This document shows, in pieces, positions 37,578 through 39,702 of a stretch of 64,000 nucleotides of DNA. The notes under the pieces were generated by a model. It searched no databases. It was not told the origin of the DNA and worked only from the letters and a program-made list of their open reading frames with translations. The position numbers and the translations under genes were made by a program. Origin of the DNA: Promethearchaeota archaeon (GTDB lineage: Archaea; Asgardarchaeota; Hermodarchaeia; Hermodarchaeales; Hermodarchaeaceae); contig JBHLMG010000001.1 of the NCBI GenBank assembly GCA_048938385.1, positions 192,001 through 256,000 of the forward strand, read 5' to 3'. Numbering within the stretch: the first letter of the stretch is position 1; each line of letters opens with the position of its first letter.

Positions 37578-38597
37578 ATGGATCTCCGTGGCAAAGACAT
37601 GATAACCACTCAAGAATGGACTCGTGAAGAACTGGACGCGGTCTTAGACTTTTCCAAAGAACTGAAGCGGAAAACCAAGGCAGGAAAATCTCCACACCTG
37701 CTTTCTGACAAGACCTTCTTCATGTTGTTTTACAACACGAGTACACGGACGCGAGCTAGTTTTGAAGCCGCATTAACTGAACTGGGAGGACATGCTCAAT
37801 TTCTAGAACCTGGTGCAATGCGGCTAGGTGAAGGTGAAAGTGTTAAAGATACAGCCTGCACTCTTGCCAGGTATGGGCATGGCATAGGGATACGAATACT
37901 GGAAAAGGCAGTAGGTTATGTCTACGGTCGGGGAAACCAGGTTCTGAGGGACTATGCCAAATGGTCTGATATTCCCATTATCAACATGGCTGATGATAAG
38001 TTCCATCCTTGTCAATCTCTCACGGATCTCATGACTGTGCAAGAGAAGTTCCCAAAAATACAAGGAAAGAAATTCCTTTTTTCTTGGGCCTATAGCCGCC
38101 ATTCCCGTTCTTGGTGTAGCGTTCAGAGCGCTGTGCTCATCGCAGCCCGATTTGGGATGGATGTTACCCTTGCAAACCCCCCTGGTTTTGAACTGGACTC
38201 TGAGATCATGAATTGGTGCCGTCAAAACGCAAACGAATCTGGGGGTTCCTTTAATATCACCCACGATCTCAAGGAAGCCTATTCTGGCGCTCATGTAGTA
38301 TATCCCCGTTCATGGATGAGCTCAGAGTGTGCAGCTATGGGCATCGACAAATGGGGTGAAGACAGAGAAGCCCAGCTTCATGAACAGTACAGGGACTGGG
38401 TTTGCACATCGGAGCTAATGGATCTCGCTAACAAAGACGCAATCTTCATGCACTGTTTACCAGTCTTTCGTGGTGAAGAAGCTACAGATGAAGTTGTAGA
38501 CGGTTCCCAGAGCGTCATCTTCGACCAAGCCGAAAACCGTCTACATTTACAAAAAGGCTTACTGTCCCTGGTTATGGGTGATAAGAATCTCCTCTAA
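37578..38597 (+). CDS. Transcarbamylase, YgeW/AOTCase-like (knotted) subfamily, copy A
   Basis: STRTR, HPCQ and HCLP carbamoyl-phosphate motifs; SWAYS loop and YPRSW replace the OTCase GDxxNN and DxxxSMG motifs. Confidence 0.88.
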   Translation: MDLRGKDMITTQEWTREELDAVLDFSKELKRKTKAGKSPHLLSDKTFFMLFYNTSTRTRASFEAALTELGGHAQFLEPGAMRLGEGESVKDTACTLARYGHGIGIRILEKAVGYVYGRGNQVLRDYAKWSDIPIINMADDKFHPCQSLTDLMTVQEKFPKIQGKKFLFSWAYSRHSRSWCSVQSAVLIAARFGMDVTLANPPGFELDSEIMNWCRQNANESGGSFNITHDLKEAYSGAHVVYPRSWMSSECAAMGIDKWGEDREAQLHEQYRDWVCTSELMDLANKDAIFMHCLPVFRGEEATDEVVDGSQSVIFDQAENRLHLQKGLLSLVMGDKNLL

Positions 38598-38640
38598 ACC
38601 TCGGAATGCCACAGATAATGATGTCTTGATTAGTTAGAGG

Positions 38641-39702
38641 CTAGCGAGGCACTCCCATAATGGCGGCCATTATAGCTTTCTGAGCGTGTAGCCGATTCTC
38701 TGCCTCATCAAAGGCGATGCTCCATTTACCATCTAGCACTTCATCAGTGACTTCAAAGCCCCGATCTGCAGGTAAGCAATGCATATACTTGACTCCCTTT
38801 GAGCCCAATTCCATTTTCGCTGCGTCAGTTATCCAGTGCTTATTGGCATCAAAGAGCTTTTGACAGCCTTCCCAATCCTCTGCAGGCGCGATGGGTGGAA
38901 TGTGGTGTTTACTGGTCCAGCATTTAGGATATACGAAATGAGCACCTGTAAAGGCTTCTTCCATGTCATTCGTTATCTCAAAGGACCCCCCATACTCGGC
39001 GACATTTTTCTCGCACATCTCTAGGATTTTGGGGTCCAGTTCAAATCCTTTTGGATGGGCAAGAATGGTGTCCATCCCCCATTTAGTTCCCATCAACACG
39101 CCACTTTGGGGGACAGCTAGGGGTTTCTGCGTGCTTGGGCTATATGCCCAACTCATCACGAATTTCTTCCCCGTTACCTTTGGGGTGTGTTCTTGTATGG
39201 CCTGCATGTCGGCCATAGCTTGACAGGGATGGTAGACATCGTCTTCCATATTGATAATGGGAATATCAGACCATTTGGCAAATTCACGAAGTATCCGGTG
39301 GCCTCGTCCGTATATCCATTTGGCGTGGGATCCGTAGATGCGGATGGCAATGGCATCACCCATTCTAGCAAGGACTCGAGCCACATCTGAGATGCGTTCG
39401 CTCGAATAAGCTTCTTCGTCATCAGGTAAGGCTGGACGGTAGACATCTTGAGGCGAAAGGAAGTGTGCATGTCCGCCCATTTGGGTCATGCCCGCTTCAA
39501 AGGAGTTCCGTGTGCGTAGGGACCGATTGAAGAAGATCATAAACAGTGTTTGTCGATGTAAGTAATCGTGAGGTTTTCGCGCTTTTTGCAGCCTCTTTAA
39601 CTCGATAGCGGCATCGATGAGGGTTTGCAGCTCCTCCTGTGACCATTCTTGGATAGTCAACCAGTCACGACCATGGAATTTACCAACAATTTCAGTACCC
39701 AT
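38641..39702 (-). CDS. Transcarbamylase, YgeW-like, copy B
   Basis: SLRTR, HPCQ, HCLPAD; SWAYSPSTQKPLAVPQS and YPKCW closely resemble E. coli YgeW (as recalled: TWAYSPSYGKPLSVPQG, YPKSW). ATG 39702 after GAGGTGA. Confidence 0.88.
   Translation of the reverse strand: MGTEIVGKFHGRDWLTIQEWSQEELQTLIDAAIELKRLQKARKPHDYLHRQTLFMIFFNRSLRTRNSFEAGMTQMGGHAHFLSPQDVYRPALPDDEEAYSSERISDVARVLARMGDAIAIRIYGSHAKWIYGRGHRILREFAKWSDIPIINMEDDVYHPCQAMADMQAIQEHTPKVTGKKFVMSWAYSPSTQKPLAVPQSGVLMGTKWGMDTILAHPKGFELDPKILEMCEKNVAEYGGSFEITNDMEEAFTGAHFVYPKCWTSKHHIPPIAPAEDWEGCQKLFDANKHWITDAAKMELGSKGVKYMHCLPADRGFEVTDEVLDGKWSIAFDEAENRLHAQKAIMAAIMGVPR

Follow-up and report, generated by a model that had tools for sequence, protein, structure and literature searches.

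The 64,000-nucleotide stretch analyzed here, which we refer to as the window (bases 192001-256000 of contig C23, JBHLMG010000001.1), belongs to a Promethearchaeota archaeon whose assembly comprises 2.48 Mb in 51 contigs and is about 90% complete. It carries two transcarbamylase genes, designated here A and B, which are the subject of this study. Gene A (37578-38597, plus strand) is an open reading frame (ORF) of 339 amino acids with its ATG at 37578, and gene B (38641-39702, minus strand) encodes 353 amino acids from an ATG at 39702, within an ORF that reaches a GTG at 39714. The ATG, which is also the end coordinate given in an initial annotation of this DNA, is likely the true start of B, since a Shine-Dalgarno-like motif (GAGGTGA) lies upstream of it. 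The convergent stop codons of the two genes are 43 bp apart (38598-38640), and so the genes are arranged tail-to-tail, just as the initial annotation had described for positions 37578-39702. The loci nearest to the window were found in Hermodarchaeota and Promethearchaeota (Asgard) genomes, with 92-93% protein identity and an identical gene order. Among the sequencing runs listed as carrying this DNA, none was of RNA. On its other side, A is divergent from a TatD gene (start GTG at 37551), with a gap of 26 bp (37552-37577) that is too short for two archaeal promoters, and so one of the annotated starts is probably wrong or the transcripts overlap; the same gap is 26 bp in one related Asgard locus (L012) and 172 bp in another (L011).

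Both proteins harbor the Pfam domains OTCace_N and OTCace (E 1e-34 to 1e-42). An alignment of the two covers 344 residues at 46% identity (E 1e-100), indicating genuine paralogs rather than neighbors paired by chance. A contains the motifs STRTR, HPCQ, HCLP, SWAYSRHSRSWCSVQS and YPRSW, and B contains SLRTR, HPCQ, HCLP, SWAYSPSTQKPLAVPQS and YPKCW as well as an insert, YRPALPDDEEAYSS. Every string quoted in the initial annotation was thus located in the translations, including the differing substrate loops, the YP(K/R)xW motif and the insert of B. As the SxRTR, HPxQ, HxLP and ENR motifs are all complete in the two proteins, both look catalytically competent. By contrast, the DxxxSMG motif of ornithine transcarbamylase (OTCase) was found in neither protein upon alignment with Escherichia coli ArgI and the genome's own ArgF: at the position where ArgI reads YTDVWVSMGE, A reads YPRSWMSSEC and B reads YPKCWTSKHH. 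The claim that the pair retains carbamoyl-phosphate motifs while missing the ornithine motif was therefore borne out. In the family alignments, HxLP reads HCLP throughout family B and varies in family A, being HCLP in the protein studied here, HVLP in numerous archaeal sequences and HPMP or HVMP in those from bacteria.

The initial annotation had classified both proteins as YgeW-type, after the transcarbamylase of a bacterial purine degradation pathway described below. Their best NCBIfam models, however, were those of N-acetylornithine transcarbamylase (AOTCase) and OTCase, and the names that databases currently give to these proteins are ornithine or N-acetylornithine carbamoyltransferase. 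A scored 282.4 bits on the AOTCase model and 283.5 bits on the OTCase model, under both cut-offs (288 and 306, respectively), and B scored 292.8 bits on the AOTCase model (NF003384), slightly above its cut-off, and 246.3 bits on the OTCase model, below it. On the two YgeW models, TIGR03316 and NF005538, A reached 154.9 and 167.2 bits and B reached 142.7 and 148.6 bits, far under the cut-offs of 500 and 453, and both proteins are only 32-34% identical to YgeW. AlphaFold2 yielded confident models for both (predicted local distance difference test scores of 95.0 for A and 90.3 for B), and a Foldseek search with these models returned AOTCase first (37-39% identity, TM-score 0.82-0.91), with YgeW absent from the top 50 matches of either. 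The closest solved relatives are AOTCase and N-succinylornithine transcarbamylase (SOTCase): Xanthomonas campestris AOTCase (ArgF', PDB 3KZC/3KZK) is the nearest for both proteins, and for A so is Pyrococcus furiosus OTCase (1A1S), on which A scores as well as on AOTCase. The overall fold and the carbamoyl-phosphate site are shared with OTCases, and the TM-scores of both models are similar against the knotted AOTCase and the unknotted OTCase.

A phylogenetic tree of 46 rows was inferred under LG+C20+F+G4, the only reference proteins being YgeW, ArgI and PyrB of E. coli together with ArgF and PyrB of the genome studied here. It recovered a knotted-type clade (99/99) apart from the OTCases, in which YgeW together with a third, YgeW-like type (type C) stands next to A together with B. 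Family A (100/99) and family B (100/97) were sisters (92/79), and E. coli YgeW joined the third type (95/85); a quick tree of 130 rows agreed, with family A forming one group and family B another. Hence the phylogeny places A and B in a well-supported clade with YgeW, apart from the OTCases, and at the same time outside the YgeW group itself. On this sequence evidence, neither A nor B is a YgeW orthologue; the two are sister families beside the YgeW clade. Members of the third type are about 325 amino acids long, carry STRTR, WAYA[AS]SY.KP.SVPQS and YAKSW, and were seen in three Chloroflexota genomes (L187, L195 and L197 in G005, G009 and G007, respectively), where they adjoin carbamate kinase in genomes that have B and lack A.

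The two proteins differ around the acceptor site. Both share with AOTCase and SOTCase an extended 120s loop, a feature of the knotted transcarbamylases (a structural group with a 3-1 trefoil knot in the C-terminal domain), which has ~8-10 extra residues (..YGRG..) relative to OTCases (8 in the comparison with ArgF/ArgI and P. furiosus OTCase), and both carry a 6-residue acceptor-loop insert that OTCases lack. B alone has a long, AOTCase/SOTCase-like 80s loop, which corresponds to the insert named above (YRPALPDDEEAYSS); the 80s loop of A is short, and the long AOTCase-type loop is missing from it. The acceptor loop of B, SPSTQKPLAVPQS, is proline-rich, with three prolines, and resembles that of YgeW, while the loop of A, SRHSRSWCSVQS, has no proline and is one residue shorter. 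Aligned with each other, B reads MSWAYSPSTQKPLAVPQS followed by YPKCW and E. coli YgeW reads MTWAYSPSYGKPLSVPQG followed by YPKSW, such that the two have the loop WAYSPS..KPL.VPQ and the motif YPKxW in common. At the four proposed acceptor residues of YgeW (Q160, S200, K203 and K270), B has E, S, K and K, matching three, and A has A, H, S and R, matching none. Among 48 sequences of family A, the Ala at the Q160 position and the Arg at the K270 position are kept in at least 95%, and the other two positions vary.

Residue roles of AOTCase (PMC4581275) were mapped onto an alignment with 3KZC-type chains. B keeps the equivalents of AOTCase E144 and K252 (E157 and K264), at which A has Ala138 and Arg244. 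The AOTCase signature W77, E92, N185 and K302 is not kept, and in B it is replaced by Y92 for W77, S105 for E92, K197/P198 at N185 and E321 for K302. The additional helices at both termini of YgeW and its 240s insert, an extension by two helices, have no counterpart in the alignment of either protein (339 and 353 amino acids, compared to 396 in YgeW). Altogether, the YgeW-type label holds for the wider clade and for the acceptor loop of B, and fails with respect to the YgeW model cut-offs, the extra helices, the 240s insert and membership in the YgeW clade.

The anaerobic breakdown of uric acid, in which YgeW acts, was solved only in 2025 and involves one ATP-yielding transcarbamylase step followed by a hydrolase. 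In E. coli and Clostridium sporogenes, XdhD reduces urate to 2,8-dioxopurine, which is further reduced by YgfK or by UacX, an enzyme resembling dihydroorotate dehydrogenase (DHODH); the rings are then opened by SsnA and subsequently by HyuA, giving 2,3-diureidopropionate. By phosphorolysis of one of its ureido groups, YgeW generates carbamoyl phosphate, from which YqeA makes ATP, the other ureido group is hydrolysed by YgeY, and YgeX converts diaminopropionate to pyruvate (PMC12507026, bioRxiv 10.1101/2025.04.24.650524, PMC12990295). Two SsnA products are reported in the pathway literature, two 2025 studies are at odds over which ureido group YgeW removes, and archaea appear in neither of them; according to a published commentary, the pathway is confined to bacteria. 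Our full-text literature searches turned up the 2025 pathway papers and no account of a version that is archaeal or has two transcarbamylases.

To place A and B among the genes with which they travel, we surveyed 80 loci centered on B, one genome per species, using tblastn with reference proteins and counting neighbors within 10 kb; 37 of these loci have at least 5 kb on either side of B and are referred to as full-flank. A was near B in 44 of the 80 loci (25 of the 37 full-flank loci), mostly directly downstream of it, on the common strand and with a gap of tens of bases. Carbamate kinase was found in 41 (21 full-flank) and a pyridoxal phosphate (PLP) enzyme in 36 (26), followed by xanthine dehydrogenase (XDH; 15 and 12), SsnA (12 and 8), hydantoinase (9 and 5) and peptidase-family M20 genes (9 and 5). 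Genes of arginine biosynthesis were nearly absent (ArgB and ArgH in 0/80, ArgC in 1/80), and a YgeX-type lyase was seen in none (0/80). The pair recurs in many uncultured anaerobes, and the host genomes belong to Bipolaricaulota, Thermotogota, Chloroflexota, Caldisericota, Eisenbacteria, Cloacimonadota, Elusimicrobiota, Asgard archaea, Bathyarchaeia, Nitrososphaerota and Thermoproteota. In 15 genomes checked in which A was missing from the B locus, A was found elsewhere in nine (beside carbamate kinase in six), and a YgeW-like transcarbamylase of the third type lay beside carbamate kinase in three.

A second survey, of 80 metagenome loci centered on A, gave a similar picture, with a ThrC-like PLP enzyme in 35, carbamate kinase in 32, B in 29, XDH in 22, a TRZ-type amidohydrolase in 16 and SsnA in 11; neither M20 nor arginine genes were found in any of the 80. 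The fuller sets of 2,8-dioxopurine-type partners occur at four loci (L005, L073, L129 and L149). At L005, an archaeal metagenome contig, A-like and B-like genes are accompanied by genes for a ThiS-like protein, a hydantoinase-type amidohydrolase, an XdhD-like molybdoenzyme, carbamate kinase (413 bits), a ThrC-like enzyme, a true SsnA (493 bits, cut-off 444), a UacX-like, DHODH-like Fe-S flavoprotein, MocA, a three-subunit XDH and XdhC, and no M20 peptidase was found there. L073, from a Desulfurococcaceae genome, and L154, both archaeal, hold co-directional clusters of six genes, namely A, B, carbamate kinase, SsnA, a UacX-like reductase and a ThrC-like enzyme, and Caldisericota bacteria have a compact operon of four: B, a CysK-like PLP enzyme, carbamate kinase and A.

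These loci thus resemble the YgeW system in their recurring partners, which are SsnA, hydantoinase, a DHODH-like or YgfK reductase, XDH, a fold-type II PLP lyase and carbamate kinase. They differ from it in holding two transcarbamylases and usually no YgeY, and in using a ThrC-like or CysK-like PLP enzyme in place of YgeX. They also differ from AOTCase and SOTCase in that the A/B relatives surveyed lie outside arginine biosynthesis clusters and have catabolic neighbors. The conservation of the neighborhood is the main evidence for function: across many phyla, A and B keep company with carbamate kinase, a PLP enzyme and SsnA, XDH, hydantoinase or UacX-like genes, and we therefore read the pair as belonging to purine catabolism.

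Several of these partners are also encoded in the window. A TRZ/ATZ-type amidohydrolase gene (39748-41148, minus strand) ends 45 nt upstream of the ATG of B and, given this gap and the common strand, probably forms one operon with it. Beyond it lies an SsnA-like amidohydrolase gene (41540-42886, minus strand; 381.7 bits on NF005540, cut-off 444), followed by genes for a polyferredoxin (42978-43475) and an aldehyde ferredoxin oxidoreductase (AOR; 43480-45417) and, immediately after the latter, a DHODH/PreA-like Fe-S flavoprotein that is UacX-like (45417-46604, plus strand). In this Asgard lineage, the AOR and polyferredoxin genes occupy the place of the XDH of relatives. On the other side of the pair, a ThrC-like PLP enzyme (33524-34795, plus strand), whose relatives (46-56% identity) adjoin A in other archaeal loci, is presumed to be the counterpart of diaminopropionate ammonia-lyase.

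A 211-amino acid protein (32888-33523, plus strand) without a Pfam or NCBIfam match abuts the start of the ThrC-like gene and is also beside that gene in L011 and L012 (58-60% identity), and owing to this kept adjacency it may work together with the PLP enzyme. The ThrC-like gene is separated from TatD by a gene for a GlmS-like protein with a glutamine amidotransferase and two SIS domains (34860-36686, plus strand), kept at 82-84% in the same two Asgard loci; a second GlmS-like copy (37% identity) is found at C23:149319-151145, and so the copy in the window may do something other than glucosamine-6-phosphate synthesis. A short ThiS/MoaD-like ORF (41331-41540, plus strand), inside an ORF at 41229-41543, sits between the TRZ-type and SsnA-like genes; it is 46% identical to a ThiS-like gene at 46620-46907 and is kept in L011, L012 and L098. 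Further away, the region 24150-32646 (minus strand) holds large genes without a family match (1169, 483, 441 and 419 amino acids) around a MoxR/chelatase-like AAA ATPase (26768-27736).

Elsewhere in the genome there are two further transcarbamylase genes, a true OTCase (ArgF) on contig C5 (TIGR00658, 425 bits) and PyrB on C28, beside pyrC and pyrD, and so A and B are extra copies. Carbamate kinase is encoded on C37 (377 bits, cut-off 358). This sole carbamate kinase gene of the genome is divergently paired with a PLP enzyme gene (L095; 6282-7232, minus strand, and 7374-8315, plus strand), whose product is Ser/Thr-dehydratase-like and resembles 3-hydroxyaspartate or Ser-Thr ammonia-lyase (433 bits, cut-off 452). 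We considered an arginine- or agmatine-deiminase pathway as the reason for the presence of carbamate kinase and rejected it, as the ~90%-complete genome gave only a 23-bit partial match to the arginine deiminase family and no agmatine deiminase; a YgeX-type lyase was not found in it either. Likewise, no large subunit of carbamoyl-phosphate synthetase (CPSase) was found, the best match being a 59-bit ATP-grasp hit (cut-off 1027) in a 411-amino acid ORF beside pyrB (C28:17405-18154). With ArgF and PyrB present and no CPSase found, carbamate kinase or A and B may supply their carbamoyl phosphate. A D-hydantoinase is encoded on C12 (TIGR02033, 497 bits). Its gene (6437-7828) is followed in the region C12:6000-22000 (L094) by genes for a DUF362 protein, an unannotated protein of 380 amino acids, an M20 hydrolase (10507-11844; 110 bits on the YgeY model, cut-off 321) and a protein of metallo-beta-lactamase fold, a set that could constitute a hydantoin/carbamoyl-amino-acid module feeding or rivalling the steps of A and B.

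Taken together, we are fairly confident that A and B are both catabolic, carbamoyl phosphate-forming enzymes of N-heterocycle breakdown. The initial annotation had further suggested that the pair successively phosphorolyses two ureido groups, with two transcarbamylases in place of YgeW and YgeY. The latter arrangement agrees with the recurrence of the pair across phyla and with the general scarcity of M20/YgeY-type genes beside it, and of the readings considered, two successive phosphorolytic decarbamoylations in a variant 2,8-dioxopurine pathway is the one best supported by comparative genomics and the one we are inclined to accept as probable. From gene content, family placement, residue patterns and neighborhoods we infer which substrates are used, in which order the steps run and how much ATP they yield, as follows. 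Purine rings would be reduced and opened by the UacX-like reductase, the SsnA-like and TRZ-type amidohydrolases and the hydantoinase encoded elsewhere, giving a product with two ureido groups, either 2,3-diureidopropionate or a close analogue. B, having the acceptor loop of YgeW, would most likely act on this diureide as YgeW does, and A, with its remodelled acceptor site, would most likely phosphorolyse the remaining monoureido-diaminopropionate, a step left to the hydrolase YgeY in bacteria. Each of the two steps would yield carbamoyl phosphate, from which the carbamate kinase on C37 could make ATP, potentially two per purine; alternatively, the carbamoyl phosphate could be used by ArgF and PyrB. 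Finally, the ThrC-like enzyme would convert diaminopropionate to pyruvate and ammonia.

A bolder version, which we put forward only tentatively and whose parts are doubtful when taken all together, is that purine-type rings are broken down by a tungsten-AOR route with both ureido groups freed by phosphorolysis alone, that A and B are the main source of carbamoyl phosphate for ATP (two per purine), ArgF and PyrB, and that A is knotted in spite of lacking the proline-rich loop regarded as a requirement for this.

A number of observations weigh against successive phosphorolysis in a purine pathway. M20 genes accompany A and B at nine of the 80 B-centered loci, and in this genome an ArgE/DapE-type M20 hydrolase, encoded 2.7 kb from the hydantoinase, could perform a YgeY-like step. 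The two families do not always come together, as only B was seen in three of the 15 checked genomes and at some loci just one of the two, be it A or B, is present within 10 kb. The Caldisericota loci, with B, a PLP enzyme, carbamate kinase and A, have no purine genes nearby. In the genome studied here, the carbamate kinase and D-hydantoinase genes are unlinked to A and B, the SsnA-like protein of the window is under its model cut-off, and no XDH-type enzyme was found in the ~90%-complete sequence, setting its cluster apart from the bacterial YgeW system (along with the Asgard host and the AOR-type enzymes) and making the entry substrate uncertain. Lastly, with no CPSase detected, biosynthesis may be where the carbamoyl phosphate goes, and not ATP formation.

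In a rival reading, only B, as a functional YgeW, would belong to the purine pathway and A would act on a different ureide, the two sharing carbamate kinase and not a substrate chain. A might then use, for example, beta-ureidopropionate or beta-ureidoisobutyrate, which arise in reductive pyrimidine breakdown, or else ureidoglycine, oxalurate or ureidomethyl-hydantoin, whose ureido group it would take before the ring opens. Such a division of labor would fit the divergence of A from both YgeW and B at all four mapped acceptor positions, the existence of full purine-type loci with A and no B within 10 kb (L149/L150, L104 and L109) and of others with B and no A, and the PreA-like reductase and dihydropyrimidinase-type genes, which also suit pyrimidine chemistry. 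Yet A and B are mostly adjacent and co-directional, with gaps of tens of bases, and 12 of the 15 checked genomes lacking A at the B locus encode a second knotted-type enzyme (A in nine, the YgeW-like type in three). Moreover, the PLP partner and the XDH and SsnA neighbors point to the diaminopropionate route, and most loci have no M20 gene that would finish the second ureido group. On balance, we regard separate substrate chains for A and B as unlikely.

The disagreement in the literature over the ureido group removed by YgeW, together with the two reported SsnA products, allows for another arrangement, in which A and B work in parallel and not in series, each on one isomeric substrate (for instance the 2-ureido and 3-ureido monoureides, or the two SsnA products), and a hydrolase encoded elsewhere removes the other group. 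The M20 hydrolase near the hydantoinase of this genome would be at hand for this role, but its score on the YgeY model is only about a third of the cut-off, and M20 genes are absent from 71 of the 80 B-centered loci and from all 80 A-centered ones, which makes a parallel arrangement quite improbable.

An anabolic role, with B as an acetyl- or succinyl-ornithine transcarbamylase of arginine biosynthesis, A as a second biosynthetic carbamoyltransferase and carbamate kinase serving as the carbamoyl-phosphate synthase, would agree with the narrow passage of B over the AOTCase cut-off, with X. campestris AOTCase being its best solved relative (38% identity, TM-score 0.82-0.91) and with the lack of a detected CPSase. 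It is, however, very unlikely: B does not keep the AOTCase signature (PMC4581275), the genome has a true ArgF, and the neighbors are catabolic. A part in arginine biosynthesis was accordingly rejected, the more so as ArgB and ArgH are in none, and ArgC in one, of the 80 B-centered loci and none of these genes is in the A-centered ones. Equally remote is the idea of a mixed oligomer in which A and B share one activity, one of the chains being regulatory or structural, for although they co-occur tightly, often side by side, and transcarbamylase active sites span neighboring subunits (PMC4581275), both families keep all catalytic motifs, the known members are homotrimers, and the genes converge in this genome and are unlinked in several others.

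If the pair indeed carries out two successive phosphorolytic decarbamoylations, this two-transcarbamylase variant would double the substrate-level ATP yield per purine and would bring archaea into the range of the pathway, among them the Asgard relatives of eukaryotes. Two uncharacterised enzyme families would also be defined by it, which are now mislabelled in databases as ornithine or acetylornithine carbamoyltransferases, and the differing acceptor sites of A and B could help settle which ureido group a YgeW-like site removes first, the point on which the two 2025 studies disagree.

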